Of a stretch of 64,000 nucleotides of DNA, positions 12,107 to 64,000 are shown one piece after another. Positions within the stretch are counted from its first letter, which is position 1. Every line of letters begins with the position of its first letter. Source of the DNA: Lophium mytilinum. Its lineage: Eukaryota. A program made the translations under genes and the position numbers. The notes under the pieces are model-generated. The model searched no databases and had not been told where the DNA came from. It was given only the letters and a program-made list of their open reading frames with translations. The DNA lies in contig MU004190.1 in NCBI GenBank assembly GCA_010093605.1, positions 744,001 to 808,000 of the forward strand, given 5' to 3'.

Positions 12107-12311
12107 TGTGATATTTCCGATCACGTGATGTAAGAATTTGAAGGACAATAGATATTAATTCTATATAGAAATCTAGCTAGGCTATATATATATTGGGGAG
12201 GCCTATATAGGCCTTAATTATACTAGATCTATATAGAAAAGCGTTTCTATAGTAGATCTATATATTACGTGTATAATATCTAAATATTAACTATATATTA
12301 AGAATTCTATA
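12107..12311 (-). repeat. 3' LTR of Gypsy element
   Basis: Direct repeat of 21632-21836 differing by transitions. Adjacent to the PPT. Confidence 0.92.
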
Positions 12312-17700: not shown

Positions 17701-20700
17701 AGTAATTTAACAGCTAACGTTCTATATAATAGCTTAGTACTTTTTCTTTTATATTGCGGCGTTGCTTTTCTTTAGAAGCTTATAGAGAGGTGCTAATATA
17801 TAGGCAAAGTTCTTAATAAACTTTTAATAGTATATTGCTAGTCTAATAAACTATTAGACCTTATAGATATTAGTAGGAATAGGCTAATACTAAATAGCGT
17901 CTAGTTTATTAGTTATTAGTTTTACGGTTCTGTAAGAAACTATATAGCTATAGAACTTAATAGTTTCTTAAGCAATTAAGTACTTATTAGTTTTAGTAAA
18001 TAGTTGTTCCTTTCTAAGAGCTTTAAATAATAATTAGAGGTAGTTAAAATACTCTTCTAATATTTCTAAAAACACTATAATATCGTCTATATAGATAAGC
18101 ATAAATTAATATAGGTATAGTTATAAGGTGTTATTTATAATAGCTTAAAAGGTGGCAGGAGCGTTGCAGAGACTAAAGGGTATAACTAGGAATTTAAATT
18201 TCCCTTTAATTGTGTTAAAAGCAGTCTTATAGATGTCTAATTAATAAATGCGCAGCTAGTAATATCTAGAGGTTAAATTAATCTTAGTAAAGAACCTAGC
18301 CTTCCTGAATAACTATAGGCAGTTATTAATGCGTAGTAGAGGGTAGGTATTCTTCTAGGTTACTAGATTAAGTGCTCTATAGTTAATATATATTTACTAC
18401 TTACTATTTAGCTTTAGAATAAAAAGAACTAGAGATCTCTAGGCACTAATAGACTCTTAGATAAGGCCCTATTCTAGCAGCTTATAGATCTATTAGGTCT
18501 ATTCTTCTATTTAATAATATAAGAGGTAGTATGCAGTATTATTTACTGGCTTTATATCTCTAGTATTAATTAGATAGTTATATCTGCGCTTAGGCGGTAG
18601 AATGTTAGAGAGGATGTTATAGAAATAAGGTTTATACTCTTTAAGAAGCTCTTAGAACTTCTCTTATATAGGAGTAGTAATATAATTAATTAGGGGTAAT
18701 AAATTCTTATCTTTTAATAGCGGATTGGTGCCAGGTTATAGTATCTAATCCGGCGTTAGTTTATTAGAAGCTTTTACAATATAAAGGTAAGTGGAATTAA
18801 GCTTATCTACTAAGAGCCTCTTATACTCCTAATAGGATATTATATTAATAAAACCCTAGTGTTTTAGTTTAGAGAGACTAAGGTCTATAATAGGGCTTAA
18901 TATATTAAGCTAATAAGCTACCGGTTTAATCTTTAGGTTGCGGCTAACCTGCGTTTGCAAGGTAATGGAATTAGTAAAGAAGTTAATAATAGCTTAGTAT
19001 TACTGCAGCCAGGTTATACTAAGGATGTATTAATACCCTTTAAGGTCTAGAATATGTGCAGTTAGAGTACCTAATAGCGTATAGATCTTAAATAGAATCT
19101 CTAAGGCTTTTATACTAATTATAGTTGCATCTAAGAGGAGTTTAACTATCTTAGGGGCTATTATTTTAATATTCTTTAGCTAATATTAAGTATGCTTTAA
19201 TAATATGTAGACGGAATTAGCGCTATAGTTAATTAAGAAGGTAGTCCTTTTCTAATAGTTAGACGGTCCTAAAGTTCCCTTATATTCTAAAAGATATTTA
19301 CCTAGGGAGTTAAGGTAGTAGATTCTTTCTTCTATTAATTTAATAACGATTTAGTTAGAAGGATTATTAAAGGGCGGCTAATCCTTTTCTATTATAAGTT
19401 TATAAAAAGTAGAAGTCTTGTCTTTTAGGTTAGTTAGTTGCTCTAAGGCTACTAACCCTTCTAGTTTTCTAACGGCTTCTTAGCTAGCTAAGTATAGTTG
19501 CGTTTAATATAGCCCTTCTTACTATAATTATAGTACTTACGTGTGTTAGTATTCTATTAAGTAGTACCTTTACTGCGTCCGCTACAGCCTTAACCGCGTT
19601 CTTAAGATCTAGTAGTATTTCTACCTTTAAAGGCGTTAAGTTTAGCGTTATCTTTAGTGTCTAGATATTTATATTTATTAGGATTAATATTAGTTTCTTA
19701 GAAGTAATTATTATCTAATTCTTTATTAGCCCTAGAGATAGCATTAAGGCGGCCCTAATAGTCTCTTGTTCTCTTATACTAGGAGATTTAATACTTATTA
19801 GTAGTAGCGACCTACGCCATCTATTTATTAAAATTAGGAGGGGCCTACGCTTAGGCGTTAATATGAAACTTAAGGCTAGGTTTTAAACCTGCGCGGGCAC
19901 GTTAATATACTTTAAGATTAGATAGAGCTATATTAAGAGGGTATATATAAGTAGCCCTAATAAGCTTATTAAAGAACTAATAAGTACTAGTTATCTATAC
20001 TATTTTATTAAAGCGGTATTAGCGTTGCTCTAGTATATCCGCGCTCTTATAGTGGCGGCTAAAGGTAGTAAAGAACTAATCTAATGTAGTAAACTTAGTA
20101 TTACCTTAGTAGTACTGTTAAATATTTTAGTTTTATTAAACGGCCATAGTTCTAGCTGTATAGCTGCCGGCCAGCTAAATCTTTTAAGTTTCCGGCATCT
20201 ACTAGTAAACCTATTAATAGGCGTCTGCTTATATAGTAATAAAGTTACGCATCTAAACTATCTAGATAGGGTACGCATTATTATTAACTTTACCTAACTA
20301 TATAGCGGGAGTCCTTATAAGGACTTTAGGTAGCGCTATTAAATAAGGTTCTCTTATAGCTAATATTCTCTTAAAGGCTTATTAAAGCTCTTATATAGTT
20401 TATTCTAATACAGGCTTATTATAGTCTAGCATTAGATAATCTAAGGGAGCGTTAGATAATAGACTCTAGAAGTTAGTAGCACTCTAAGAAGTAGGCTACT
20501 ACTAGGGGTTATCTAATATATTCTTAATACGGGTATAGTAATTAGGGACTATAGCTTATAGCTGCCCTAGTATAGTAGCCTGCTACTATTATATAGAAGG
20601 AGCTAATATAGAACTAAAGAGTTCTAGTTTCTAGTAATCTATTATATACTCTATTATAGGGGCTTAGAAGTATTAATAGCTATCTAAAGAAGGCGTAAAT

Positions 20701-20960
20701 AATAGCCCTTAATAGGTAAGCCCTAGATTATAGGCTAGGGCACTACTGTAAATAATTAGAGGACCTTAAACTAGTAGCTTAACGGGTTCTAGAGTAGCGG
20801 CCTGCTTAGCCTATAAGGCTAATATTAGGTTAGATAGATTATAAAATATAGTGCTAAACTAAGAGAGCCTTTAGAAGAGTCCTTAAAGGTTAGAAGGTAA
20901 TCTATTAGAATAATAATATCTATTACTAGATATAAAAGGAAGCTAAGGGTTATAGGACAT
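14800..20960 (-). pseudogene. RIP-inactivated gag-pol (ends approximate)
   Basis: De-RIP zinc knuckle CYNCGKKGHIKRNC at about 19494-19535. Intact RT LIYIDDIIVF at about 18070-18100. Integrase TPY(H)P(Q)(T)N(G)KVERLN at about 16455-16500 and a GPF-type motif at about 16030-16050. Confidence 0.85.
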
Positions 20961-21631
20961 CTAAGGATAAGAAAGAGTAGAAAAGAGTTAACGACTGCAA
21001 TATAATTAAAGTAAAGAGTAAGAAAAGGGTGCTAAGATAGTAATGTTAAGTTTTTTTCTTAAATGCTTTTTAATATCCTGTTAGAGAGGGAGGATTCTTA
21101 GAAGGACTTCTCTGCCTTCTTCTTATAATTAACTTATAAGGATTTCTAATTGCTATATAATTATTAGGCTCCATTAAGCTATAATATTATTCTTCTCGCC
21201 GTCCTGCTATTAATCTTGCTTCGGTAGCTAATAGGACGCGTAGTTAGTTGCGTAGAAGTGTTAAAAGGGATAGGAAAATCCCGCAGTAATATTCTAGCTA
21301 AGGGCTCTTTAGACCTATACTGTTTAATTTTTATAAGGATATTTATAATAGGCGGTTATACTATAACGCCGGCCTAATACTAATTAGGGGCTATTATTAA
21401 TAGTTGTTATTAATCGCTAATTAGGTTAATTTTTAGAAACCGTTAATACGGCTTAGTATTATTATAATAATCTAAAAATTCTACTAATTATAGGAGCTAA
21501 TGTCTTCTATTATTACTAAGGGTTAATTATAAGAATATAGCCTTAGCTAGCTCTATACTATTAAGTTTAAGGATCTAATAGCCCTCTAAGGAGGCCTTAG
21601 AGGCGGCTAGAACTGCAACTAAGCTACTAGA

Positions 21632-21836
21632 TATAATATTTCTAATTATATAATATAAGAATTTAGAGAATAATAGATATTAATTCTATATAGGAATCTA
21701 GCTAGGCTATATATATATTGGGGAGGCCTATATAGGCCTTAATTACACTAGATCTATATAGAAAAGCGTTCCTATAGTAGATCTATATATTACGTGCACG
21801 ACATCTAAATATCAACCGTATATTAAGAATTCCACA
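21632..21836 (-). repeat. 5' LTR of Gypsy element
   Basis: Direct repeat of 12107-12311. Confidence 0.92.
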
Positions 21837-22297
21837 TGCAGAGATACCACAAAGAGCAGCTCTAAAAAGAACGAACCATTCAGTCCTAAAGCGGTTATTA
21901 GTATAGAGGCCAGCAGCGTAGGGTGCGTATCCCAGCGTTCCAAATAGCAGCGCTCCCTTAATGCCAATGTATCTTACGAGCACACTCGAAAAGAGGCAAC
22001 CCAAGATCATCAAACAAAACGTGAGTGCGTTAGCGGAATTGATTAGATGCGGCGATGCAGCGCCACCCGCTCCAAGCGAGTTCATGGCACCCCATATTCC
22101 GGGTGCGGCGAAGTTGCAGAGGCCGAGAATGGTGATGTTGTAGAAGGTCGAGCGGTACCATTTTGCTTCAATCGGGTTAGCTTAGTCGCAATGACGGAAG
22201 TCGCTTCGGGGAACTTACTAGGGTGCGATCTATCCTCAAGCTGGGCATCGTCTCGAACGTGAGAGTCGGACTCTCGAGACTCTAAGGGAGTTCCCAT
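21837..22297 (-). pseudogene. 5' part of the interrupted UNC-93-like MFS transporter gene
   Basis: MGTPLES..., one intron (GTAAGT..GCTAAC..AG), then KWYRSTFYNITILGLCNFAAPGIWGAMNSLGAGG...ALCGISA, which joins GVFW across the TSD. Confidence 0.88.
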
Positions 22298-46646: not shown

Positions 46647-49600
46647 CTAGAATGGGTCGGGAGACGCAACAGGTTCCGGCGTCAGCAACCGCGGCTCCGG
46701 TTCATAATCGTCTTCCTCTTCTGCGTAATGGACATGTCTGCCAGCGCTCGGCTCGGGAGCTGACTGGCTCTTGCCCCGCTTGGCTGCTGCAATCTCCTGT
46801 TCATCCAGGAGGCGTTTCTGTTCCTTGGACTGCTCCCCACCGGCATCCCCGGCCATAGGGTCGTCTGAAGCCGCTGCAATCTTCACAGTCTCGGAGGGCT
46901 CGCTCGGCGGGATGTGTCCGGAAGGTTCGGTACGTGCGGCATAGATGTCTGGCTGCGCTTTGAGGAACCAACCTCCCTTTTCCCATTGCCCGGCTCGGTA
47001 TACCGACGCTGCTCGAACTTCTTTATTTACGATGCCCTCCATGAGCTCGCTGAGCCGGGCAAACGATATAGGTTTTAAGATCCAACCGTCAAATCCAGCA
47101 TCGATGTACATTTGCCGGTCTTTCTCGATGAGCGAAGCCGAGACTGCGATGATTGGTATGCGGCCATTGAGTGCAGCCCGCTTAGACAGAATTTTGGTAG
47201 GATGCGTCTTCTCGAACGAACGTATCATCTTGGTGGAGGTCAGGCCATCGACAATGGGCATCTGCGAAATACGGTTAGTCGCTGTAGTATTTATTCGGTA
47301 CTTAATTTTCGTACCTGCATATCCATCAAGATGCCATCAAAGTCGCCAGGTTTGTCGCCGAATGCACTGGCACACTCTTCTCCATTGATGGTAAGATACG
47401 TCACATGTCCGAGCTTCTCGAGCCTCTTCTTCACGATCTTACTGTTGACCGGATCGTCCTCCGCAACAAGGACGTGCATGTTAGCGGCTGTATGTGGAGT
47501 ACTACTTGGACCACTTTCAATTTCTCCAAGAATCGAGCCTGGTTTCCTCTCCTCTATAGGAGAGCCAACCTCGTCCGGCATTTTGACCGCCTTGACCGAG
47601 GATACGGAGTCCGAGACAAGCTCTTCCCCAGGCTTGCTTTTGATCATCTCCCTTTGGTGTGGCGGAACGTTGTCCTTCTTAGAGAACTCGAGGCTGCGAG
47701 ACCGAGCTAGTCTTGGTGAAGACGACTCGCTCATGTCGTAGCTGTTCCGTTTCTGAAGCCTGGGCTTGTTGGGAGAACGCGCGCCGAAAATCTGCTCCCC
47801 GCTCTTCGGTCGCTTGTCTACCAGGTGAGGTTCTTGGATAGCCTCAATTAATCTATCAACATCGCTCATGTCGCTCTTCTTACTCGACCCGCTCTTGAAG
47901 CTACGCATACTGTTCTTGCTGGTCACACTCTCAGCACTTGCTCGTCTCACTATTTTCCCACTGCCTGAATCTCTTCTTGGCATATCTGGCGCTACCAGCG
48001 TGACTTCAGGGGCGCCATGGTCCGATTTGTCAGGTTGCGGCGTTATCGAGCCTTCGGGCGTGATCTGTGAGCCACGTGAATTTAGGGAATTCTGGGAAGT
48101 TCCATCTGGAACTTCGGTATCTGGCAGGTCAAACGGGAATTGAATAATGAATCGAGACCCTTTGCCTTCTTCGGATTTGAGGCGCAATTGACCGTTCATA
48201 TTGCGCACGATGCGAGCTACTACCGCTAGGCCGAGTCCAAGAGTTCTCTTTGATTCCTTGCTATCCGCTAATTGTTTTGCCGTGGGGGCTAGATTGTCTT
48301 CTAGCATCGCCGCGCTCTCGGATTGGACTTGTTCTAAGTCACGGAAGATCGAGTCGAGTTGCTTAGGACTCATTCCCACCCCTGTGTCCTCGCAGGCAAT
48401 CTCGATATCGACATGATCACTCTCCCATGAAGTAGCGTACATTTCGATTTTGATTCCTCCATGGGTTGTATGCTGGATAGCGTTCGCAGTGATGTTCGAA
48501 ATCGCTTGACGGACTTTCCGCTGATCCCCAATAACATTCTTCGGAACGCCAGGGTGTTCCACAACCTCATATGCGATGCCTTTGCGACGAGCATCGCCGA
48601 CAAATATGTCAGTCGCTTCTCGTAGCGTAGATCGAAGGTCGAAGATCTCGCCTTTGATTAACTCAGCTCCCTCCTCCGTCTTGGTTAAGTCGAGTAAATC
48701 ATTGATCACATAGATCAACGATTTCGACGCAGAATGAGACTTTGCCAGATTGTCACGTGTTTCCTGGTCGATGGCGCCTTCAAGGGCAATTTCGAGGTAA
48801 TTGATGATGGCGTTGAGTGGTGTCCGAACTTCGTGTGCGGAGTTTGCCAGTAATAGACGTGTAAGCTGGCTGCTTTGCAATGCAGCTTCCTTTTGTCGCC
48901 ATACCTCAATGAACTTCCCATACACCAGACACAGTACGGCAGCGGTCTCGATTTCTTCTTCGGTCCACTCCCGGCACTTTCCTACCACCGTCTCACTCCA
49001 AGTTTTGAAGCTCTTTCTTGGCTCCAGGTATCCTTCAGTGCCCTCTTTGATGTACTTTTCGTAAGGGTTGCCAGCCCATTTGACTTCTCTGAGTTGACCT
49101 CTCCGGAAAAAAACGATGAAGTCTTGCCCACCAACTGACAACGGCACTATCAGCATACCTGCGATGACTGAAAATCCTGGGGGGTATCTCAAGTCGGGAA
49201 AATCCTGTGTAATATCCTGTGAAGTCATGACTGATGTGACCCTTCGCATACGTAAGTATTCTAGCATAGCTAGAGCCTCTTGTGATTGTTCCAAATCCCC
49301 TAGAATTTTCGTCTCATCTCGAATTGACAGCAGACCAAAATCAGCGTCGAATAATTTCAGGAGATCATCAGACGACGCAATGATATAGCCAGATGGGTTG
49401 TGTTGCGTGGGCACCGTGTTGATAAGTTTTCGAGCTTGTAATCGAGAAGCGTAGGAAAGTCGCTCAATGTTTCGTGAAGCTGAGTCTCCTACTAGGCGGC
49501 ACATTTTCCGGATAGGAAATGAAACTCGCATGCCCTTTGCGCCGTATGAATGGCATGCAATGAGCCCCCATAGCTCGTTGAAAGCATTAATCGATATGGA

Positions 49601-51431
49601 CATGGACGACCGGACGGCCATGTTGCCTAGGTATTTCAGATGGATCGGTGACATGGCGCGAAGATAGGAATAAGTCAGATCTCCAAAACGGTTAGCTCTT
49701 TCAACTGATACTGACCAATACAAGAAGCTTACCTAGCGGGGTTTCAAGATCTTCAATCGTTCGACATACGAGGCGCGCTGTCTCCTGGGATCGATCGTAT
49801 AGCATTCGGACACGATTTATCTTGTACAGGTCCCGTGCTTGCTTTGGTATATCGGATGCAGGGAAATGGAGGCCTTTGTATAGATCCTTCGTGGCACGGG
49901 GATCCACCAACTCGGTCACGACGCGGCCGTTGAACGTCGCGTCGAATTGATATATCATTACGCGGTGAAACCCTGTTAATTCTTTCACTACTCCCACAAG
50001 AACCTTGAGAAACTTTTCCAAGTTCGGAGCATTGGCAAGCTGTTCCTGAACCTGAGACATGATATTAAACACTTCCATGGCTGCTGCCTCCCCCTTGCGC
50101 TTTCTAGCGCTCCGTAGAACTCGTAGCGGCCGGTTTTTGGCCTCTGTGCTCTCAGCATATTCTTCTGGGGTCGGTGCGCTATTCAAGGTGTCCTCCGGTA
50201 GATCGGGTGTTAAATCGTTGAGTGGCACTAGAGGATTGACTGGATCATCCTCGAGCTCAAACTCGCAAATGATGAGGCCAGGATTCGAGGGGTTTACGTG
50301 TATAGCGCACCAAAGTTTGCGAGAACGCCCAGTGATAGACCTGATAGAGATAGTGAAAACTTCAGGCCCGTTAGTAGCCACGTCAGCATCCTCGTCTTTG
50401 ATGAAATCGATGTGGTCCAGTAGATTGTCAGCTTGCTCTTCGGAGAGTATATCGGTAAAGCTCTCGAGTCCAAAGAGCTCCTTCGGCGACCGTCCAATTA
50501 TGCGCTTCGAATTCTCGCTCACAATCCTAACCGGGAGACAGCCAGAATTGCTGGTGTCCTCCTGGAGTGCGATCAGGAGGCCGAAGCCTTGCACAGCACC
50601 TGGAATGTGTATGGGTTCGTCCTCGCAACGCTGCAAAGTATCACCATCTCGTCCAGTGATAACTGCGTGGCCTCCTTCAGTAACTATATGCTTGAATCGG
50701 GCTGTCACCAACCCTTCTCCGCCTGTGCCACTATGGCCGCTTGTGCCACTCATAATCGAAGCGCTCCGGCTGGCAGAAGGTGCGCTATCTTTATCGGTTT
50801 GGAAAGATCCTGTCCGGTCGCTCTCGCCAGATCTGCTCGAAGCAATGTCGCTGAAGACATGCGCAGGGAGGCGAGGTGCGGGCATTCTCGCCTTCTCTCG
50901 TCCAGGTTTCATCGATGACTTTAAAGGAGGTTGCGTGGGCTGTTCCGCCGGTGCTTGGTCTGGCGGCGCTTGTTCTGCTTGGGGGGTTGCATCTGTATCT
51001 GTATCGTCCGACTTTTGCCTCTGGGTGACACCTCTCTGCGAGGCGTACGACGAATGTGAGGCAGTAGAGTCTGTCGACTGTCGGCGGCGAGCAGCGTCCA
51101 GAGAGGCCCTAGAGGCTTGTTGGAAGTAATCACTCTGCTCGATCGGACCACGGCCGAGGGCTGAGACTGGGTCGACAGATACAACGCTTCGGATGGGGTA
51201 TACGCGGTCTGTAGCACCGGGGCTAAGCTGGGACATGAGATCGATGGACGGGGAGGCGATTGAGGAGGCCGTTTGTGGGGTTTGTTGTCGGGCTTGGGAC
51301 GCACCGGAGTGATTGTCAGTCCACATCCATAGGTTGCTGGCCCGTCGCTCAGGGCGTGCGGCCGAGGGTTCTGCCTTAGCAGGAGGCGGGGCAGGAGGGT
51401 CCGTGGGTGAATTGGCGGATGGTTCAGACAT
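46647..51431 (-). CDS. fphA: Fungal phytochrome, red-light sensor hybrid histidine kinase (PAS-GAF-PHY-HisKA-HATPase-REC)
   Basis: RCEDEPIHIPG (bilin-binding Cys), PASDIP, LRAMSPIH, PRKSF, H-box SAHEVRTPLN, DTGVG, GLGLA, receiver LVAEDD..LMDMQ|MP. Two introns. Confidence 0.95.
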
Positions 51432-53696
51432 TGTCACTAATGCCCGTTCCAGCAGCCTGTATGGTAGTGGTGAAGAACCAGAGGACTAGCACGGGGCGTC
51501 TCGTTCGGGGAAGGGAGAGTATGGGATGCGAAGGCGCGGTGCCGCAAAGAACGGCCGACAGCAGCGCTCGTCCACACAAGGGACGGTCCTCAAACCTCAG
51601 CTCATGGGCTCCCGCGAGCACTGGTTCCAGAGTGACGTATCGAGGTGCCAGATATGTCTCGAGGCGGCGCACGAAGACGTGTAGGCAAGGCCGCTCGCCA
51701 CTGTGGCTCAGGTGGATCTCCCGTCCCCAATCCGGAGTGCTTGCGGCGGTCGACAACGCAGACGGCGAAAGGGAGTTTCAGAAGGAGCGCAATGATTGTG
51801 GGGGCTGCTACATGCGAGTGGACTGCGACTCGCACTCGCGGGCCGTGAGCAAAATGCGATATATGGATGAAGGTACCGTCGATGTGTGGCGAAGTCGATA
51901 GGACCCTGAATCTGTAGGCCGGTTCAAAGCAACCAAGATCGTCGGCCCGACTTCGACGGCGTCGACGGGGGTTGAGGCCGGTCTCGCACGGGGAGGACAG
52001 CAGCGCGCTGCTGAGGGCGTGAATGGGGGTTGCTTGTGCGGTGTTTGGTGTTTGAGTGCGGTGGGACAGTCGCGAGGTTGCAAAGAATTGGGACGGAATG
52101 GGCTCGGGCTCAACATGGGCCGCTAGGCAGTGTCGGGAGGGCTACGGGGGGTCGGCAGAGTTAGGGTGAGGACTGTAGCTTCATGATCACGATTCACGTG
52201 TGGAGGAGACGCAGCTAGCAGGCTGCGAAGCCACATCTCTAGCTGCGACGAGTATGGCACGCCTGTGGCTACCGACGTTTGACGTCAAGGACACCGCCAG
52301 AGGCGCAACTGATCTACGACGATCTTCCCCAGGAGCGGCGGCCAGCCTGTTGCAGTGAGTGGCCCGTATGGAGGTTTCGCGGGGCCCTCGCGCTGCCCGA
52401 GGCCGTCTTTACCGTATAAGACGGCTGCGTTGGGACGCAGGGTGGATGCATGCTCCCTGGGGCGCCCGCTGACATCAACGGCAACGATAAAGTCCAGGAG
52501 TCTGGCAGGGTGGGCAGACGGGGACGGTGGTGTTGTTGATAACGACGTCATCCAACATGCACAGAGTCAGCGGCGTAGGGACGGCATGGCAATTGAGAAG
52601 TCCATCAGGCGTCGAGGGCATTCGTAAACCTAGCCACGAGAACTTCTTCACGCCCCCTTGCAGTTTAGCCAGGGAGGGCCTCCGACGCTGCCTTCAGCGA
52701 CGTCACTGCGCTTTTAACCTGTGATACCGCGCATACAACCATCAGGATGCAACAGCAGCTCGAGGGGATTGCCATGACTGCGAACAAGTCTAGTCCGCAT
52801 AAGTGCACCCCGCGGAATATGACAATGATAGCTTCACAACACGATTCATGGTCAGGTGACGGGGTATACTGCCCCGCGCTAACGTAGCCTTACAGCTGCC
52901 GAACTCTTGTCAATTTAGACTCTCCCCTCTCGGCTCAGACTCCCGCCCCTGCCTGTCATCGGCTTCCCTAGTCATGTGATTCGGTCACAGGACTTTGTTT
53001 GCTCCATTGCACTCACACTTCTAGTTGCAGTACTCTCATTCACCTTAGCCGTGATCTATGTACTAAGGTAATGAGTGTGCTCTGCAGCAGTCTGTCTCAT
53101 GTGTGCCCTAACTGTGCCATAGTGCCATTGTTAAAAGTGTGCCAACACTCTTAGGTCAGTAGACACTGCGTAAAAGACAAGGCAAAGCCGCCGGCGAAGA
53201 CTCATGGCTACATTGATTCACCACAACAGCCAGCTAGGAGGTTGATGGACCTGAGTATCCGAGTCAACGCGGGGCATTTCCACCCGTACTACTAGACTTC
53301 ACCGCGTAGACGCTCCGCGGCGGCTCATCTAGCATCGGCACTACGACTCTCTGACGTTCCATACTTGCGTGCTGTCTTTCTGCTGTCACTCTCGCCACGA
53401 CGCCTTGCACGGTGTTGTACCTCGCTCATTCATCAATCCTTCACGCGGCTCCCGTCCGAGTCAGTGGCGCCAAGACCGACGCCACCCGCTATTTCTCAAC
53501 ACCACATGCGCTGCACGATAATGAAAACACCACACACCCAACAAACCCAACCATTGGAATCCACACTACAATAGCCACTTTTATTGGTCGCAAATTACTC
53601 GCCTTAACTTACTAAGCAGAACTATTACTTAAATAAAGTCCTATTAACGCGTTTTAAGTATTATTTATAATATTATTAAAATAGGTGGGTAACTTT

Positions 53697-55930
53697 ATGC
53701 CTATATTCTAATATACTCTATTATAAGAATATACCTAAATAGTAGAAGAAGCCTACCGCCGCTAGCTATATGCCTATAAAAACGCTAAATTAGTTAATAG
53801 AGTAAATATTAGAGCTATTCTTAAGTTTTATCTTACTTTTACTATTTAAGCTAGTGCTGCCGCCCGTAAGATTAAAGCCTAGAACTAGACTAGCGCCTAG
53901 GTCTATTATAATATTAAGCTTATAATAAAGATACTAACGTTCTAATTAAAGTAAATAGTATACTAGTAGTAGAGATTAGGCTAACTTATACTAGCTAATA
54001 TTAATAACCTCTTTAAGTAAGTAGCTAGTAAAATTATTACTAGCACTATATATAATACTCTAACTAGCAGCGCTACTAGTATAGCGCCGCTAGATAAACC
54101 TCTCCGCCTAAAAATTAAGGGCCCGGGGTTAATTAATGCGCTGCGGACTATAAACTAGAAGAATAGCTAGCTAAAAGTACTTATTAATACTATACTACTT
54201 CTAAGTAGTAAGATAGCGCAAGTAGTATAGATACTACTATCTAGTAATATTAATATCTACTCTTATATAAATAAGAACCGCGACTAGCTTCTTAAGTAGA
54301 ATAAGTAGATATAGATACTAGAAGTAGAAACTAGTATTCTATAAGATATATATAGAGTTATAGCCTATAGGTTTTCTATAAAGAGTATTAATATAGGTAT
54401 AAAGAAAAAGGCGGTAGCTATATAATAGCTACTATAATATAATATTATAGTAATGCTAAAGGCCTAAATTATCTATATTAGATAGCTCTATAGTAATAGA
54501 GTTACTAAAAAGAGTAATAGCTTTCTTATTATTAAGTTTAATTACCTAGAGGATGTAAATACAGCGCTTAATTAATATATTCTTTAGAATAGTAAAATAC
54601 TTAATACTATATAATATAATAGCGGCTATAGGCTTTAATAATACTATAAATATAACTACTATAGCTATATTAAAACCTAGTACTGCGCATTATAGTTCTA
54701 TAGCTACTACGCTAGAGAGTACCTAATAGTAAACTATATAAATAAAAGTTTACTACCTTTCTACTTACTATATAGTAAAAGTTACCCTATATATTCTATA
54801 TAGTATAAAATACGCTAGTAGGTATAGAAGATAGTTAAAAAGAAGTTAAGAAACCTCTCTTATAGGTATACTATTCTATACCCCTAACTTTTAGCTAATA
54901 GCTAGGTGCGTAAACTTATATAGAATATAGGCGAGGTAATTAACTCTAAGAATACACGGACGCTAGCGCTATAGCTAGAAAGGGACTAGGCATAGCCTAG
55001 AAAGAATAGAAGATAATAATATAAAAATAACGCGTTACTAGAAGTTATAATACTAGAACTTAGATTATCTTTAGAAATATTTAACGCGGGAGTCTAGCCC
55101 GCTATACTAAGGATCTAGAAGAATATAATAGAGGTTTTAGTTATTTCTTTATTATAAATAGTAGTTAACTTAGATATTAAGTAAGCCGGAAAGTAAGATA
55201 GATAGCCTAACTCTAGTAGCAATACCCCTACTATAGTAACCCCAACGCTAGAGGCTAGAAAGAGCTGCTAAAAGAAGCCTACCTTTATAAGAATTACTAA
55301 GCCACTAGATAAACTAATAGAGAATAAACTTAAACTCTAGAAGGCTAAAGTAAAATACACTACTATTTAGAAAGAAGCTAAGAAAGTAAAACGGGCGGTA
55401 ACAGCGCGTATAAGAAAGCTCCTTATAGTAGAGAGATAGTATAGTTAAAAGCTTAACTTAAACTAAAAAGAGAATATATAGTTCTCTAGCTAGAATATAT
55501 TAAGCTTTTTAGTAGATATATTAAGCTCTATAGACTTAAGTAAGACTAGCATTATTATTAAGGGTAAAGATGGAAAGCGGAACTATAAGCTATTAGTAAA
55601 GGCAACAGTAGTATAGATTAAATAGAGCACGGCTATAAAAAGAAAATAAGCTAGCTTAGCTATAGCCTCTAGTAAGAAGAACTAGATACTAAAGAAATCT
55701 AAGCTTAGAAATAAAGTAATATATAATAACCTAGACGCGGATAAATACTTCTCTAGCGGCTAGAAAGATATATAGACTTTAGAAAATAAGAATAGTAATA
55801 TAGAAATAGAAAGGAAGTATAGCCTTGCCCCTAAATAATTATATAGAAGAGAATTCCCCTTCTAGAACTAATTCTTAGATAAAGATACTAATAGTAATAT
55901 TATAGCTAATTTAACGCGGCGCTTCTAGCC
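53697..55930 (+). pseudogene. LINE ORF1 (gag-like, CCHC zinc knuckles), RIP-inactivated; ends approximate
   Basis: De-RIP QCYKCN.YGHI.TQC at about 54638-54683, followed by two more C/H knuckles. Confidence 0.7.
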
Positions 55931-55949
55931 TAACTCCTATAATAGAGTA

Positions 55950-58900
55950 TAAATTAGGCCTTAAAATTCTCTAGTAGAATATATAGTATATATATATAAA
56001 TACCTAGTCCCTCTTTATAGATAAGAATATTACTAAATTTAATATTATAGTAATCTAGAACCTGTAGCTTAATATATACTAGAAGGATATTATTATAATA
56101 AGCTAATATAGTAAATTCTAGTGCCTACTTATAGGTAACCTCTTAACTTAAACGGCTCTCTATATTAATAAGAGAATCTATAGCAACGCGTAGTAAATAG
56201 ACTACGTTAGTAACTTTAGAAATACAATTAAAATTATACTTAAGAATAACTAGAAGGTGCTCTTCTCTAATATCTATTAAATACTAGGTAATATAAACTA
56301 AATAAAGGTTATTATAGAACTAGATAGGGCTATAGAAGTATATAACTATATAAACCCGCGGGTAGAATATATTATAGTAGGCAACTTTAATGCGTACTAC
56401 TAAGTATAGAACTTATACTAACCTATAGATATAAGAGAATAGGTAGTAGCTAGACTAATTAGAGAATATAGTCTATAGTAGTATATAGAAAGAGACATGC
56501 CTATCTACCTACTAGATAATAGTAAAAACCGGCCTTTAATAATTAATCTTATATTAATCTTAATAATACTAGAAGAATATATATAGTACTGCGCGCTAGC
56601 TATAGACTTTAACTATAGATTAGACTATATTCTAATAGGTATCTAGCTTAGCGTACTACTACTAGCCTAAATAGTAGTAGAAGAGCGCCTAAAATAGAAG
56701 GAAATAGATAAAGAAAAGCTGCGTAAGGTGCTAAATTACCTGCTGCTAGATATTAAGCTAGTAGAGGTTAATATAGTAGAAGCGCTAGAGCGCTTTATTA
56801 ATATTCTAGTTAACGCAGTTAAAGAGGTAGCCTATAAGGCAACGCTAATATATAAGATATACCTACTATACTTAAGAAAGGGCTTTATAGAGGACCTAAA
56901 AGAAGAATAAGTTAAACTCTAAGCTATAAGGTGGATAATAAAATAGAACTAATTAGAATATATAGTTAACCTCTACCGCTAGTAGAAGAAGAAATAGTAG
57001 AAGCATATATAAAACTAGAAAAGAGACTACTTCTATAAAGATATAATAGAAGTAAAAGATATAGCTAAGCTATAGTAGCTAGTAAAATAGAAGAAAGGCT
57101 AGGCTAAGTAGAAGAGGTAGAAACTAAAAATACCTACCTTTAAAGTTCTAGTACTAAGGGATAAAATACCTATAGATAAAGATACTATAATAGAAGACGC
57201 TAAACTAGCACCTACTAAAATATAAGAAGTATAAAATAGTAGAGAAAAGGCTAACCTACTATAAGAAAAGTTCTTTTCTAAGCTAATAAGGGGAGCTAAC
57301 CCTAGACTATAGGGCTACCTAGAGCCTATAAAGATAGAAGTAATTACCCTCTATAAAATAGTAATAATAATAAAATAATCTATAACTAGTAGTATACTAG
57401 GCCTAGACGGCGTTATCTATAAGGTACTAAAAGCGGGTATAGATAGTAGTAATACTAGCGCCTATAACTCTAAATTAAAACTACTATACTAGCTATATAT
57501 AATATTTAACGCTAGCGTTATACTAGAATACTATCTAGTATACTTCTAGAGCTTAATAATAATTCTACTGCTAAAGCCTGGAAAGCTAAAGGACTAAGTT
57601 AACTTATACCGGCCTATTACGCTACTTAGTACTATTAGTAAGACCCTTAAAGTAGTGCTAGCTAAGCGTATATAGTACTACCTAGAGATATTAACTAGTA
57701 TACTAATTACTTACTTTAGAGAATAGAAGGGGCAGTCTTATAAGCACGCCCTATATAAACTAGTAGAGGAAGTATATACTACCTAGAATAAGAAAAAGGT
57801 AGTAATAATACTATTAATAGATATATTAGGGGCGTTTAACTATATTTATTACCCGTAATTACTATATAACCTCTTAAGAATAGGCCTTAAAGGCCCCTAG
57901 AGGAACTAGGTGCATAGTTTCCTTATAGAATAATAGACGTAGCTATAGCTACTAGATATAATAATAGAACTTAAGGATATATACGTTAGTATTCCCTAAG
58001 AATTACTACTATTGCTAGTGCTATTTATTATCTTTAATACTAAACTTATTATATTAAACTAGGATAAAGATAAGTAAGAGCGTAAGCTTATTACTATTAG
58101 ATAGATTAATAACGCTAATATAGTTGCTATAGGTAAGATAACTAAGTAGATCTATAAGATACTATAGTAGATTACGCTCTAGTACCTAGTATAGAGTAAA
58201 GTATATAGGGCTAAGTTTACTCTAGAGAAATTCTATATAATATACTGCGTCCCTCCCGGTATAAGACGCGTAGAGAATAATAGTAGTAATAGACTACTTG
58301 CCTTTAGAATAATAATAGTAAAAGTAGAAAAAACTATTAAGATCTTAGGCGTTATAATTAATTTATAACTTATATTTATATAGTATATAGTACTTATTAA
58401 GAAGAAGGCTATTAGTAAAATTAATATTTTATAGTGCCTTAGTAAGCCTATCTAGGGGGTAGATATAATTATAATACGCTATGCCTATAAGGTAATAGCG
58501 CTACCCTGCTTTATATTTAGTATATTAGTCTAGTATAAAGGTATAGACTTAGACGCTAATAAGGCTATTATAATAATAGCTAGCCTATAGAGATAGGTAG
58601 CTTTAATAATTATAGGCATGTTTAAGAATATACCTAGGGATATCTTAGGTATTATAGCGCACCTGCCGCCAGCGTAGTAGATATTATAATAAACTATAGT
58701 ATAGACTATAATTAATATAGCTATAAAGGCCTATTATAAGTACCTTATTAAATAAGTAGACCTAATAGTAAGATATAAGAGCCTACTAGCTCTCTATAAG
58801 TAGACGCTACTATAATGTTTTAAGGCTAATGCGCTAAATATATTAGTAGTGCAGGCGTTTATTAACGCCCTATAGGCGCTCTTTCTAATAATATTTATTA

Positions 58901-59950
58901 CTAATATAGTAGAAGAAGCTATTGCGGCGCATAATAAGAACTATAATAGCTTTTCTAGCTATTAGTATACTAATAGATCTAGGTAGAAAGAAAAGACTAG
59001 GTTAGCTATAATTAATATTAAATAAGTATAGAGATATATATTCTATCTAGGCCTAATAGATAAGTACTCTATCTATAAAGCGGAAGCCTAGGGCATAGTA
59101 ATAGCCCTAGACTATATTATCTAAGCCTAGGCTAGTAGTAACTAGGGGCACTCTTCTATAATATATATAGATAATAAGGGCGTTATATAGGCCCTATTAG
59201 ATACTATAGTAAAGAAGAAATAACTATTTCTAGCCTAAATTTATAAGCTCTACTAATAGGTTATAGGCTTAGTTTAAATCTACTAGATACCGGGCTATAA
59301 AGGTATATATAGTAATAAATGCGCTAATAATACGGCTAAATAAGCTATAGGCTAGGTGCTAGATAAGAATAAAGAAACGCCTATCTATACTAAAAAGACA
59401 CTAGGAATTAAGCTATTAAAGAATTACCCTTAGCGCCTAATATATAAATTTACGCTAAAAAGATAGATAAATCTATAGAATAATACTTACTAAGGCCGCC
59501 TATATAAGAAAATTATACTAGTCCTAAGTAAGTATAACTTAGACTAGCTAAAGGGCGTCTTCTAACTACTCTAAGTAATAATAGAATAACTATTAATAGG
59601 TATCTATAGGCTAGTAGACTACCTAATATTAATCTAGGCCGCCTCTATAGATACTACTAAATGCCGCCTATACTAATTAGATAAATACTAAATACCTACT
59701 TATATTCTATATAAGTGCACTAAGCTAATAACTAAATAGAAGGCAATATAGGTAAGTATTAGAAAAAAGATTCTATAGTTATATATTCTCTTAAGTAAAC
59801 CTAGCGCAGCTAAGTATATAGTATTACTAGTAATTAAGTCTAAAGTACTAAATTAATTCTAGTATATTAATGTAGACGCTAAGAACGCTATACTCTATCT
59901 ATAACCTAATATTTTTAAAGAGTAGGTATACTACCTACTATTAGTCTAAA
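55950..59950 (+). pseudogene. LINE ORF2 (AP endonuclease - RT - RNase H - CCHC), RIP-inactivated; ends approximate
   Basis: IIVI(Q)EP at about 56040, G(D)FNA(H)(H) at about 56380, YRPITLL at about 57607, (G)IP(Q)..(S)(P)L at about 57988, (W)I(D)(D) at about 58102, YT(D)(G)S at about 58966, (W)IPG(H)KG at about 59284. Confidence 0.88.
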
Positions 59951-60397
59951 GAATAGGTAGAGGCGGCTAAACTAGATAACTAAAACTTAAATACTATAAG
60001 CCGGGGATCCCTAACTAGAAATAGAATACTATACTTAGGAAGGGCCTACCGGGGGTAAGTTACTAATAATCTAATATACTTATAAGGGCCTAGCCCAGCT
60101 CTATACTAGGTTAAAAGAAACTAAGAACCTACCGCACTTAAGAATAATAATAAGGGAAAGAGAGAACTAAGAGAAAAGGCTAGTTATAGAGGTAGAAAGT
60201 ATAAGTTAGTATATATTCTAGCCTAAACTACTTATAAGCGGTAGGTTAGTTATACCTAATATACTATTAGTTAATAGTTAGTTAGTTAGTTAGTAGTTAT
60301 ACTAGTATATAGTTATATTTATATATAGTTATAGTAATATATAAAAGTGTAAAATAAGATAGCTAGAGGGGCCTATATTAAAGAAATAGTAAACTAT

Positions 60398-61440
60398 CTA
60401 CCTAGAAGATTTTCTCTTTCTCTTTCCGCTACGCTTAGGCTTTACTATCTTCCGCAGCGGAACCTAGGTGCCCTTTAGACGCCTATTAGATTAACTATAC
60501 TACTAGCGATAGCTAATATTATTTAAGAAAAGTACGCCTAAATGCTTTTTATTTACCTAACTATATATTATATAGTAGGAAAAATAGTCTAATAAGTTCT
60601 ATATACTAAACTTAATAGTAATAGTATTATATATAATATATAACCCGCGGAAGAAAATAGTATTACTATAGCGTATCTCTATACAGGCCTTTAGGGGCTA
60701 GAGTAGTAAATCTACCCTCTTATACTACCTAAAGGGTACTATAGTATTAAACCCCTTAGGCTTATTATACTTATTATAATAGGTAGACCTACTAGTAAAT
60801 ATATTATCTTATTCTTAATTAATTATACAGCCTATCTAGAGACTACTTAGTGCACGCGCGCTAACTAGTAGCTTTCTTAGCGTACCTTAAAATTTTCCGG
60901 CTATAGACGGGTCTATAAGGCGCAACTTCTTGCCTAGAAAGTTAAAAAGGGCCTAATTTATAGCTAGAAAGGCGTCCGCCGCCGCCTTCTTATTCTTATA
61001 CTTACTAGAATAGTAGGGTACCTTAGCGTAATAATACTAGAGCATATAATAGCATATAGTAAACTTACTATAAATATAATAGCCGGTCTTCTTAATAGGT
61101 AGAAGAGTAGTAGAGCTCTTCTCTAGGACTAATACTAGTCTAAGTAGAATTTAAAATTAATAGGCTAAAATAATACTACGCGAGTTATATAACTTTAGGT
61201 GCTACTTAGTACTCTTAAAGCGGTAAAAATATTAATACTTTTAGCTACTCTCTATAGGCTGCTAATATATTACTTTTAATATAGAATATAATACTTAATA
61301 GTAGTAGATAGCTATACTAACTACTAGCTAATACTAAATAAGCCGCTTAATACGGGCTTAAGTCTACCCGGGACTTATAGCTAATACATAATTAATAAAA
61401 CTTCTATACGCCTAATTACGGCGTAACCTACTAGTAATTA
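60398..61440 (-). pseudogene. TET/JBP-like 2OG-Fe(II) dioxygenase, RIP-inactivated, antisense inside the LINE; 5' end not resolved
   Basis: One continuous frame whose stops are all TAA/TAG and so RIP-derivable. Unmutated residues: ADAFLA, ALF.FLGKKLRL.DP, PKGFN..VPF, DLLL.PLK, IFFRG. De-RIP HxD at 60773-60781, distal H at 60629-60631, RNS at 60593-60601. Confidence 0.75.
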
Positions 61441-62779
61441 GTAGGTAATATAGTAGAATAATATATCTATATATAGCAAGACCTCTTCTTTAACTAGCTC
61501 TATATTGCCTATAGATATAATAATAGAACTAGCTAAATTAGGTTCTATTTTAGTCTTCTAGATAAATAGTTAGTAGATATTTAATATATTAGCTAAGATA
61601 ACGCTTAGCTAATAGAGAAACTAGCCCCCCTTTAGCGCTAGGCGTAAGGCCTAAAACGCAATACTTAGTATATATTAAGAAGTCTTAGCATTTTAAGACG
61701 CCCCTATAAGGGCCGCCGCTATACTATATAGTAGTAAAGTGTACTAGTAGATATACTTCTTCTCTTACTAGAGACTAAGTCTTAGACTAATAGAGATAGA
61801 AGAATAAAACCCTCCCCTTTAGCTAAAAGCGTAAAGCTTTTTAGAAGAATTTTTCTATTATTACGAGCAACCCTCTATTTAGATAGGCCTATAGTTAGAG
61901 AAAGCCCCGGGCATAAGAGCACCCGGGTAATAGTTCTAGTTTAATTTATAAAGATTTAAGAAGATAAGTAGCTAGAGCTATACCCCTCTATTTAAGGCCT
62001 AGTAGCTAGAGCCGCTAGATATATAATTTAAGGTCTAATAGCTAAAGCTACTATATATATAAGAAAAAGCCCCTAAATTTCTCTATAGCCTTATAAGCCC
62101 TGCTAGAGAGATAGGAAACTACTATATAGTACTTAGAGATAGCTATATCTATTATAATATATTAGAGGGTAATACCTGCTTTATAAAGGTTCTTTTTTTA
62201 CTATACCTAAAAGTAATCTTACTAAGGTTATAATAACTAAGAGATTATTATCTACTTATATAAAAGCGCTAGCTTAAAGAACCTAATAGATTACGCCTAA
62301 CTATAAAGCCTAGTAACCCTAAGCTAATATATATTATTAAATTTACCCTCTAGTAGAATAACCCCTTTAAGGTAATCTAGCGCCTATATAGCGGCTTTTA
62401 ACCGCTGCATTTCTATCTCTAGATAGTAACCTAGCGCCTATAGATAGACTAACTAACTAACTAACTATAGTAAGGCTGTAACTAACTAACTACTTACTAT
62501 AAAGCTACTAGTATAGGTAGAAAGGCGGTATTACTTACCTAAATTATAGTAATAGAGGACTTACTATATACTTATAATTATAAGAGAGGATAGGCTAGGC
62601 GGGCTATATACTAGGTAGAACTATAGCCCCTAGTAGGTGTAGACGGCGGCGGATTTTATATATTATTATAGTTTCTCTCTTTTACCTAGGCCCCTATAGG
62701 TAACCTACGGGCATTTGCACTACCTCTAGCCTCTACCACTAGCTTGCTTAAGGCCGGCGGCGCGCTGCGCAGGCTCTAC

Positions 62780-62980
62780 TTGCCCTAAGTTGCTACGGGG
62801 CCGCTGGGCCCTTATGTATATACTTAGGTGGAACCTACTCCTTAGGGCCTTGGAACCCCGGGGCAGCGGCGCAAGGGCAGGAATTTAGGCACTGGACCGC
62901 CCAAAGATTTGGGCGCTCACGTGCCTAAATACCCCACCCCCGCCGGCTGAAAGGCCACGCGGTATGCGCCTTCGGCGCGT
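62780..62980 (+). other. Structured 3' UTR of the LINE (stacked hairpins)
   Basis: ATTTAGGCAC (62883-62892) pairs with GTGCCTAAAT (62921-62930) around inner CGCCCAAA/TTTGGGCG. Also a GGCT-GAAA-GGCC hairpin, an ATGCGCC/GGCGCGT hairpin and an imperfect nested stem at 62780-62880. Confidence 0.7.
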
Positions 62981-63077
62981 TTCATCCGCAATATGAATGA
63001 ACCAACCAACCAACCAGCTGCACGATAATAATCGGTTTCCCTAGCTCTGACTTTAACACTTCCACTACCATCCAGGA

Positions 63078-64000
63078 ATGCCGTCCCTCGAATATCCACG
63101 CTTCCTTAACGTCCTCGTCGCCGCCACCTCGCCCACCACCCACAACTTTGCCCAGGACGTCTTCAAACGCACCTCCTCCCTTGATCATGTCCGGTCCCGC
63201 ACCATTGTCTGTCTCGACCAGAAGTCCTACCCCACGAACCCCTTCCTAGCCGCCGACTACTACCACGATGGCCTCACCCAGGCCTCTGAAGACATTGCCC
63301 GAGGGCACCAGAAGGCCGCCGAGCTGTGTGCATGGGCTGATCTGCTCATTCTTGCCCCGATGACAGCAGACGATCTCGCACGAATGCTCCACGGCCTGAC
63401 CAACAACCTGCACTTGGGCATTTTAAGGAGCTGGGATGTGTCGAAGAAGATACTGCTCATTCCGGCCATGTCCACCCTCATGTGGGAGAATCCCATGACC
63501 AAGAAGCAGCTCAGCAAAATCCGGAGAAAGTGGAACTGGATACGCGTGTTGCAGCCGCTACTGTGGACTTTTGAGTCGAAAGTTCGCAAAGACCTTCCGT
63601 GGGATGGCGTTGATGGCTTGATTGAGTCCGTCCAAACTCAGGTCGATTTGATGACTGTGGGCAGAGACGTCGAACATGTGGCAATGCCGCTCACGCAGGC
63701 CTTTAAACCAAACGCAAAGCCCGGCCCAGTCCTCCCGCCGGAACTATGGTCTATCATTCTGGATTACACCGGTGACTGGGAGTTAGCAACGGCACTAAAC
63801 ATTCACACAAAAGTATCAACCCCATCGGAGTGGAGGCAAGCGAGTAGCGAAGCCGGACCACAAACCCCCATGGAGAAACTTGAATGGATTCTCCTCATTG
63901 GTACCCTTAGTGAAGTCAAGGCCCTGCTTGCAGCAGACAAGCCGCGACGTCTCTCCCGTCTGTGTATCAAGATCATGATGCGATTTGCTAAAGTCAACCT
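63078..64000 (+). CDS. Hal3/PPC-decarboxylase-like flavoprotein-domain protein, truncated by the window end
   Basis: Open frame to the window end with WADLLILAPMTADDLARMLHG, LRSWD and PAMSTLMWENPMT (HFCD flavoprotein motifs), followed by an F-box-like LPPELWSIILDY. Confidence 0.85.
   Translation, partial: MPSLEYPRFLNVLVAATSPTTHNFAQDVFKRTSSLDHVRSRTIVCLDQKSYPTNPFLAADYYHDGLTQASEDIARGHQKAAELCAWADLLILAPMTADDLARMLHGLTNNLHLGILRSWDVSKKILLIPAMSTLMWENPMTKKQLSKIRRKWNWIRVLQPLLWTFESKVRKDLPWDGVDGLIESVQTQVDLMTVGRDVEHVAMPLTQAFKPNAKPGPVLPPELWSIILDYTGDWELATALNIHTKVSTPSEWRQASSEAGPQTPMEKLEWILLIGTLSEVKALLAADKPRRLSRLCIKIMMRFAKVN

Follow-up and report, generated by a model that had tools for sequence, protein, structure and literature searches.

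Genes for TET/JBP-type dioxygenases have been described in eleven lineages of DNA transposons, in fungi of the Pucciniomycetes, Agaricomycetes and Pezizomycetes, and the carriers comprise Kyakuja, Dileera, Zisupton, Plavaka, EnSpm, ESTA, hAT, Harbinger/PHISTA, IS3EU and Helitron elements (Kojima 2025, PMC12730594). Escape from methylation-based silencing has been proposed as the role of these genes in the fungal DNA transposons, and the survey states outright that the gene has been found in no retrotransposon and speculates on the reason (PMC12730594). Full-text literature searches yielded no retrotransposon-encoded TET/JBP gene either, the supplements of Kojima 2025, which might list some, lying outside their scope. 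The window analysed here, a stretch of 64 kb from Lophium mytilinum (assembly GCA_010093605.1, contig MU004190.1, positions 744,001 to 808,000 of the forward strand), contains near its right end a non-LTR retroelement of approximately 9.5 kb that has been degraded by repeat-induced point mutation (RIP). Relics of two open reading frames (ORFs), ORF1 and ORF2, lie on its plus strand between exact target-site duplications (TSDs), and its 3′ region holds, on the minus strand, the relic of a TET/JBP dioxygenase gene. Transposon-borne TET/JBP genes are already known, and a long interspersed nuclear element (LINE) as the carrier is new, in agreement with a first, sequence-only reading of the window, in which the configuration was thought to be undescribed. 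The element is likely to represent a low-copy LINE family in which the TET/JBP module moves with the LINE as one, the module having presumably been captured and possibly acting against silencing.

The element shares with the TET/JBP DNA transposons of fungi the general design of a mobile element with a stand-alone TET/JBP dioxygenase as accessory gene, for which escape from silencing is the presumed benefit. Unlike these, its carrier is a non-LTR retrotransposon that moves via RNA, not a DDE or HUH transposon; the gene is antisense, intronless and located inside the 3′ untranslated region (UTR), and no transposase is found in the six frames. Its host, which resembles a Dothideomycete, falls outside the Pucciniomycetes, Agaricomycetes and Pezizomycetes from which such transposons have been reported (PMC12730594). 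With regard to the carrier itself, the closest described systems are the fungal Tad1/I-type LINEs, which have a zinc-knuckle ORF1 and an ORF2 with an apurinic/apyrimidinic-type endonuclease, a reverse transcriptase (RT) and an RNase H. Common to these LINEs and the element are the two ORFs, the RT, TSDs of about a dozen base pairs, 5′-truncated copies and ruin by RIP. In contrast to the poly(A) of Tad1/I-type LINEs, the element has a microsatellite (AACC)n tail, and it possesses a 3.1-kb 3′ region with an antisense gene; its assignment to this clade, from motifs read by eye, is tentative.

The boundaries of the insertion are well defined. An exact 13-nt direct repeat, GCTGCACGATAAT, forms the left TSD at 53510-53522 and the right TSD at 63017-63029; it occurs exactly twice in the window and was matched in none of 100 shuffles, with zero occurrences expected by chance. 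An (AACC)4.2 tail at 63000-63016, which is free of RIP and at which other copies stop (63015-63018) with differing flanks, directly abuts the right repeat copy. These data bear out the sequence-only reading, according to which the repeat brackets the entire RIP block and its right copy directly follows an (ACCA)-type tail. The LINE arrangement of a TSD with a 3′ tail directly before its right copy is seen twice, with 13 nt in this copy and 12 nt in a second copy described below. The 5′ end and 5′ UTR of the LINE (53523-54116, plus strand) begin with about 100 nt that lack RIP, and this 5′ boundary is common to the second copy, which likewise starts at 53523 but has another flank. The GC content of the interior is approximately 0.29-0.33 across 54000-62000.

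The ORF2 relic (55600-59900, plus strand) occupies a single frame, 53524+3k. In a six-frame Pfam scan of the X-translated element this frame matches RVT_1 with an E-value of 5.7e-4, the score falling below the gathering threshold as a consequence of RIP. A word-indexed protein search with the query 57400-59898, in which 7999 candidates were scored, returned five proteins at E<=1e-3, the best at 2.3e-11; RVT_1 is present in all five and Exo_endo_phos in four. With four of these five proteins, tblastn places the RT at 57352-58050. Only the RT of the matched proteins aligned, although Exo_endo_phos is present in them. A LINE-type RT is thus indicated by the RVT_1 match, by the five LINE proteins and by tblastn. 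The remaining motifs were read by eye in the same frame, i.e., an endonuclease-like motif at 56380-56400, an RNase H-like region at 59161-59310 and a Cys/His knuckle relic at 59662-59730. The ORF1 relic (approximately 54117-54680, plus strand, frame 53523+3k) was likewise read by eye from the X-translation and includes a zinc-knuckle-like relic at 54642-54677. The identities of these four motifs are putative; the Pfam scan of the RIPped frames gave no endonuclease, RNase H, knuckle or ORF1 match. Since all ORF2 motifs are found in one frame, ORF2 is free of frameshifts over more than 3.5 kb. Its stops comprise 119 TAG and 74 TAA codons, while TGA occurs nowhere in the RIPped part. ORF2 motifs can be recognised as far as 59662-59730 and around 59840-59850, leaving about 3.1 kb before the tail, close to the earlier estimate of an ORF2 end near 59950 with about 3 kb to the tail. 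With an RT, a TSD, a microsatellite tail and 5′-truncated 3′-end copies (see below), the earlier assignment of the host element as a LINE holds.

The antisense gene is a relic of approximately 350 residues, intronless and in a single frame at 60398-61560 on the minus strand, the start being approximate; it is delimited by phmmer, by alignment and by a codon-level test for RIP. The part between 60398 and 61441 yields the dioxygenase peptide that the sequence-only reading had assigned to a minus-strand frame at about 61440-60398. A phmmer search against 1.84 billion representative proteins returned 45 homologues at E<=1e-3, 15 of them at E<=1e-10, with a best E-value of 1.4e-23 over 277 residues. 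The two named homologues are hypothetical proteins from metagenome-assembled genomes (MAGs) of the ascomycetes Watsoniomyces obsoletus (Lichinomycetes) and Sclerophora amabilis (Coniocybomycetes). Among the 30 best homologues, 17 match the Tet_JBP family (PF12851) at E<0.01 and 13 do not. Dioxygenase matches by tblastn are confined to 60431-61327, and a word-based search with one intact relative, P0046, found five proteins only. A profile built from the relic and 10 homologues aligns with the Naegleria Tet-like dioxygenase (PDB entries 5cg8 and 4lt5) with an E-value of 2e-4, such that the columns of the H-x-D motif, the distal histidine and the arginine coincide. The H-x-D...H iron triad and the arginine expected to bind 2-oxoglutarate (2OG) are kept in 9-10 of the 10 aligned homologues.

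The TET-type double-stranded beta-helix fold is observed for the relative P0046, not for the relic itself. An AlphaFold model of P0046, built on a 48-sequence alignment, has a mean pLDDT of 91.5. A Foldseek search of the PDB with this model places CcTet on top (E 6.8e-15, TM 0.64) and also retrieves NgTET1, human TET2 and CMD1; the approximately 20 best-ranked chains listed all belong to these four proteins, and generic 2OG oxygenases of the AlkB and FTO type rank lower. The closest folds are those of CcTet from Coprinopsis cinerea and NgTET1 from Naegleria gruberi (PDB entries 7vpn, 7w5p, 8jkk, 4lt5 and 5cg8), with E-values of 7e-15 to 1e-13 and TM values of approximately 0.54-0.65. The H-x-D, distal H and R of the relic family align with those of NgTET1, but sequence identity to CcTet and NgTET1 is just 13-18%, and the copy in the window, unlike these enzymes, is a dead relic. 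In the ESM Atlas, 28 of the 30 nearest clusters belong to the Tet_JBP set. Sequence, profile and fold of intact relatives thus support the frame as a true relic of the TET/JBP family, and the H-x-D...H...R-x-S arrangement that had first drawn attention to it fits a TET/JBP-type 2OG-Fe(II) dioxygenase, as judged from the 45 homologues, the Tet_JBP matches of 17 of the 30 best among them and the TET-like fold of the relative.

The damage to the gene was analysed by a codon-level test in which only reversal of C>T or G>A in a present TpA context is permitted. The codons of the iron ligands and of the arginine, all on the minus strand, are at present TAT (H221, 60779-60781), AAT (D223, 60773-60775), TAT (H271, 60629-60631) and TAG (R281, 60599-60601), and these revert to H, D, H and R, respectively, the arginine in two steps. 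After this reversal the relic agrees with the family-majority residue in 143 of 298 aligned columns, up from 87. A control reversal in the ApT context gives 105 matches in the same 298 columns, and controls with shuffled columns average 32 matches and never exceed 50. TpA-context reversal can remove every one of the 27 in-frame stops and no frameshift is required, so that the gene was intact and intronless when RIP struck. Among the 56 columns that nine or more of ten homologues conserve, 5 stay unrecovered after reversal. The closest relative, a 197-residue fragment from a JGI data set (P0177), is identical to the relic at 83 of 187 positions as read, and at up to 134 of 187 (72%) after reversal. 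The data support inactivation of the dioxygenase solely by RIP-type transitions, and the LINE, too, was put out of action by RIP only.

To what extent LINE and dioxygenase gene travel together is best seen from further copies of the element. The copy survey covered contigs of two public sequencing runs from one sample, set on 53400-63100 at 80% likeness; the two runs contain 99-100% of the sampled words of the element. The survey consists of contig pieces and loose ends, and the following statements on copies refer to those listed. A second-copy contig of 4488 nt runs collinearly with 56271-60767 (4497 nt in the window's own contig) and spans the RT, the end of ORF2, the first part of the 3′ UTR, the left of two microsatellite arms that flank the cargo, as well as the 3′ portion of the dioxygenase ORF; its pieces have near-constant offsets, from 56270 to 56294. 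A second contig of 2069 nt is collinear with 60739-62873 (2135 nt in the window's own) and spans the remainder of the ORF, its upstream region, the right arm and the last part of the 3′ UTR. At the 5′ junction the match begins exactly at 53523, preceded by ...GAGCGCGGCGGAGAGGGTC. At the 3′ junction a contig matches up to 63018, i.e., the tail plus GC, and continues with GGAGAGGGTCCAAGC...; its sequence past 63018 reads GGAGAGGGTC..., which gives a 12-nt TSD other than that of the present copy. This 12-nt duplication, GCGGAGAGGGTC, is common to the two flanks of the second copy and differs from the 13-nt GCTGCACGATAAT.

These observations are most simply read as a further full-length insertion of this composite, at a different site. 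It follows, on the same simplest reading, that the composite has been the RNA template in at least two events of target-primed reverse transcription (TPRT) and that the LINE carries the dioxygenase gene as cargo. The composite is accordingly probably a retrotransposing unit. The earlier suggestion that a LINE family carries the gene thus gains a second copy that is collinear over both cargo junctions and has its own 12-nt TSD. LINE copies that end near 60300 and lack the cargo, which would have spoken against that suggestion, do not occur among the pieces listed. A different origin of the two copies, by segmental duplication of a locus in which a LINE already contained a nested element, with the terminal repeat a coincidence or an artefact of assembly, is very improbable indeed. 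RIP requires only a duplication, whatever its origin, so that a segmental duplication would suffice for it, and the runs are probably the assembly's own data. However, the second copy shows similarity from exactly 53523 as far as the tail and not beyond, its unrelated flanks have a 12-nt repeat in common, the copy in the window has an exact 13-nt TSD, and there are additional 5′-truncated 3′ ends with other flanks.

These additional 3′ ends are contigs that contain only the last 100-190 nt of the element and end at 63015 with yet another flank. Loose ends with differing flanks precede 62825 and 62912 and follow 63015 and 63018. The summed contig depth is approximately 60-170 over most of the LINE body, 210-370 over the cargo and 500-560 in 62796-63100, the depth in this last bin being a sum of 3-4 times that of single contigs. 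The rise in depth and the loose ends show the 5′-truncated copies with a common 3′ end that characterise LINEs. Two apparent joints, 57828>60563 and 56571>58398, were considered as deletion variants and rejected; they have merely 21 letters on one side, at 80% likeness and in low-complexity sequence. The second copy reads C where the window has T in 172-180 positions, and G where the window has A in 106-108; the reverse differences number just 26-27 and 45-46; this excess indicates that the second copy is less RIPped than the copy in the window. The TSDs of both copies, GCTGCACGATAAT and GCGGAGAGGGTC, open with GC right after the tail. This may reflect a nick-site preference of the endonuclease, two cases being too few to say.

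The distribution of RIP along the element was assessed with the index (CpA+TpG)/(ApC+GpT). Its value is 0.15-0.16 over ORF1 and ORF2, and the same range of 0.15-0.16 applies to the cargo ORF together with the region upstream of it, as the sequence-only reading had it when it described the cargo as no less heavily RIPped than ORF2. Short spacers have values of 0.05-0.07 (0.06 for 59901-60273 and 0.05 from 62493 to 62700), and the flanks of the element have values of 1.16-1.27. Between 53621 and 62700 RIP is even, as it should be with a duplicated partner that comprises LINE and cargo jointly. The loss of RIP is confined to the last 300 nt, where the index rises to 0.86 (62701-62850) and 1.57 (62851-63016), and to the first approximately 100 nt (53523-53620), with an index of 1.0 compared to 0.15 further in. 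Both element ends are un-RIPped, a feature absent from the sequence-only reading, and this holds even for the 3′ end, which no other part of the family exceeds in repetition (summed contig depth approximately 500-560). Possible reasons are that short, 3′-only copies do not reach the length required for RIP, or that RIP weakens near the borders of a duplication.

Within the 3′ region the cargo forms a module of 2.2 kb with inverted-repeat borders. Part A of the 3′ UTR (59901-60273, plus strand), between the end of ORF2 and the cargo, has the low RIP index given above and is collinear in the second copy. It is followed by the left arm of an inverted microsatellite, (ACTA)5 on the minus strand (60274-60294), which lies past the TET/JBP stop by about 100 nt; the second copy has a 20-nt piece on this arm (joint 60089>60270). 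Upstream of the dioxygenase ORF, the module contains approximately 0.9 kb of further sequence (61561-62447, minus strand), with a tandem repeat of two 36-nt units at 61990-62062; this region is present in the second copy and is presumed to hold the promoter and 5′ UTR of the dioxygenase gene. The right arm (62448-62492, plus strand) consists of (ACTA)5 at 62448-62468, 12 nt, and (ACTA)3 at 62481-62492, and has one extra ACTA unit in the second copy (place 62447). Beyond it, approximately 530 nt of 3′ UTR remain, of which part B (62493-62999, plus strand) loses RIP from 62700 onward and contains a structured 3′ end with a hairpin-forming inverted repeat at 62880-62933. The predicted RNA fold of the last 177 nt (62840-63016), a set of hairpins, has an energy of -76.2 kcal/mol (z -3.7), and only one of 200 shuffles folds as well. 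An Rfam scan of the element gave no match.

The two arms, 60274-60294 and 62448-62468, form a 21-nt inverted repeat of 100% complementarity that flanks the cargo and was absent from the sequence-only reading. The 64-kb window holds seven overlapping (ACTA)n matches at three sites, all of them within the element, with 0.69 expected by chance. As full RIP converts (ACCA)n into (ACTA)n, the arms are RIPped copies of the tail repeat of the element itself. Such inverted tail-repeat arms hint at capture through the LINE's own machinery. A comparable outcome is known from L1 3′ transduction and from LINE-mediated capture of retrogenes, in which foreign sequence likewise stands between the last ORF and the tail and is copied by TPRT, and the tail-like borders found here suggest a similar, RT-mediated capture. 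In contrast to L1 3′ transduction, however, the foreign piece lies within inverted tail repeats and upstream of a conserved structured 3′ end, not behind the tail.

The same arms might be taken for the ends of an independent mobile element, either a small retroposon with an (ACCA)n tail on the minus strand or an element with terminal inverted repeats (TIRs), which inserted after the LINE had landed, so that the LINE family as a whole would lack it. In favour of this, the inverted repeat at the module ends is perfect, the minus-strand arm lies about 100 nt behind the ORF stop like the tail of a retroposon, and homologous genes occur at three metagenomic loci that do not adjoin an RT. The second copy, however, is collinear over both junctions and differs in its flanks at the termini of the LINE, no loose ends are found at 60274 or 62468 among those listed, RIP is equally heavy on LINE and module, no TSD surrounds the module and the inverted repeat is limited to the microsatellite. 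The arms show no extension past the microsatellite and no inward extension. The best direct repeat around the module in this RIP-saturated sequence is 10 nt long, and local alignment gives a score of 22.5, the mean for other element windows being 22.9. An imperfect direct repeat of 24 nt (60176-60199 and 62501-62524, 79%) was considered as a module TSD and rejected, as neither it nor the longer alignment that includes it outscores other windows in the element. The six-frame Pfam scan of the element, the sensitivity of which is cut by RIP, found no transposase family. Of the features of a DNA transposon, i.e., a transposase or Rep/helicase, TIRs or Helitron ends, and a short TSD, none was found in the module, the room besides the ORF being only about 0.9 kb and the inverted repeat the 21-nt microsatellite alone. 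An independent module is thus quite improbable. The sequence-only reading had named TIRs or a TSD of the cargo's own as signs of such a nested insertion; an inverted repeat is indeed present in the form of the 21-nt microsatellite, whereas a TSD was not found. The region 61561-62447 has no similarity to proteins, the cargo upstream region gives only background matches against the rest of the LINE, equal to those against an unrelated Gypsy block in the window, and the sequences upstream of the three tail-like repeats have no common similarity (z 0.7-4.0, none meaningfully over the shuffle maximum).

For a LINE family in which the TET/JBP module moves as part of the unit, the following course of events may be envisaged. 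A 9.5-kb unit of 5′ UTR, ORF1, ORF2 (putative endonuclease, RT, RNase H-like region and knuckle), 3′ region and (AACC)n tail would insert by TPRT with duplications of 12-13 bp. The module would be part of the RNA intermediate and be copied along with the LINE, at a minimum of two target sites. Capture may have occurred when the LINE RT retroposed a dioxygenase transcript into the 3′ UTR of a master copy, or switched templates at the tail repeats to place it there. The dioxygenase would presumably be transcribed from its own antisense promoter, and the antisense orientation together with 0.9 kb of upstream sequence makes expression independent of the LINE promoter possible. The enzyme might have oxidised 5-methylcytosine or another methylated base on the DNA of the element and thus have blunted methylation-based silencing. 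Both long copies are RIPped, so that any protection failed in this genome.

In a variant of the same history, the composite moved as a unit but the dioxygenase gene is a functionless hitch-hiker, a retrocopy or transduced piece gained once shortly before silencing. This is unlikely. Only two long copies are seen, both RIPped and with no protection evident, the inverted tail-repeat arms resemble the scar of an accidental RT-mediated event, and no other retrotransposon with this gene is known (PMC12730594). A useful gene is favoured, though not decisively, by the ORF without a frameshift and with RIP-type stops only, intact when RIP struck, by the retention of some 0.9 kb of upstream sequence and of the antisense orientation, which permit independent expression, and by the capture of such genes in eleven DNA-transposon lineages, a repetition which argues for benefit (PMC12730594). 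An anti-silencing function may be entertained with much lower confidence than joint movement. A further-reaching proposal would make the TET/JBP gene standard kit of a LINE family, acquired by RT with the inverted tail repeats as the scar, expressed from an antisense promoter within the 3′ UTR and delaying methylation and RIP by oxidation of 5mC on new insertions, with intact and active members in related ascomycetes in which RIP is not strong, P0177 being the closest intact gene; this is tentative and, on balance, rather doubtful.

Several observations weigh against a LINE family with a mobile TET/JBP module. With regard to the gene, the RIPped translation of 61441-60398 matches none of the Pfam families, and only one of the 30 best homologues passes the Tet_JBP gathering score, another reaching 34.7 compared to the required 34.9 bits. 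With regard to the copies, the sample of the two runs is probably the source of the assembly, in which case the data are not independent; the pieces of the second copy are separate contigs, such that its ends with the TSD are linked by parsimony to the middle part that contains the cargo, and its 53724-55991 part has no contig at 80% likeness. Neither a cargo-less LINE nor a stand-alone cargo copy is among the pieces listed, but this is weak evidence that such copies are absent. A perfect inverted repeat brackets the cargo, as it would a separate element. Both long copies were RIPped regardless of the cargo, with no benefit to the LINE evident. Finally, homologues of the dioxygenase are present at three metagenomic loci, on contigs of 1.7-2.3 kb, in which neither an RT nor an (ACCA)n tail repeat was found and the neighbouring ORFs have no Pfam match.

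These short metagenomic loci neither support nor exclude carriage by a LINE elsewhere. At one of them the dioxygenase ORF is interrupted, possibly by an intron. At a soil metagenome locus (L001), the dioxygenase homologue is followed by a convergent ORF of 242 residues (1369-2097, minus strand), which has no Pfam match. The dioxygenase gene copies of this locus and of L003 are near-identical and have different surroundings; judged from this sequence similarity, the gene may be multicopy in that metagenome also.

The surroundings of the LINE in the window contain both intact genes and a second RIPped region. Approximately 2 kb to the left of the LINE lies a fungal phytochrome-like histidine kinase gene (47291-51431, minus strand), intact and not RIPped, which comprises two long ORFs, presumably split by an intron, and whose homologues contain PHY, GAF, HisKA and HATPase domains. 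The kinase is 65-71% identical to proteins from named Dothideomycetes and 77% identical to its best match, so that the host is probably a Dothideomycete. To the right, an open frame of at least 307 residues (63078-63998, plus strand) starts 49 nt past the right TSD and runs off the window, which places the LINE in a short intergenic or promoter region just upstream of that gene. The second RIP block (11900-22200, minus strand), with a GC content of approximately 0.30 and a RIP index of 0.40, is the relic of a Gypsy-type long terminal repeat (LTR) retrotransposon, in which a single frame of the minus strand matches RVT_1 (E 1.3e-9), RT_RNaseH_2 (1.1e-21) and RT_RNaseH (3.8e-21). The plus-strand translations of both block ends contain near-identical peptide strings, which suggests LTRs. 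A blastn comparison of the block (12000-22000) with the LINE showed the two to be unrelated.

The evidence comes from two dead copies in one genome, and the function is inferred. Within these bounds, the element provides a counter-example to the survey of TET/JBP carriers, and extends transposon-borne TET/JBP genes to copy-and-paste elements and to a Dothideomycete-like host. It is also a concrete case of a LINE that picked up an entire foreign gene and carried it in antisense orientation. For the question whether a base oxidase can interfere with methylation-linked genome defence such as RIP, the element serves as a natural test. Should the TET/JBP gene prove to be standard kit of the family, the element would be the first known case of an epigenetic eraser on a retrotransposon, and it would mean that elements which pass through RNA are able to acquire and retain such genes in spite of that stage.

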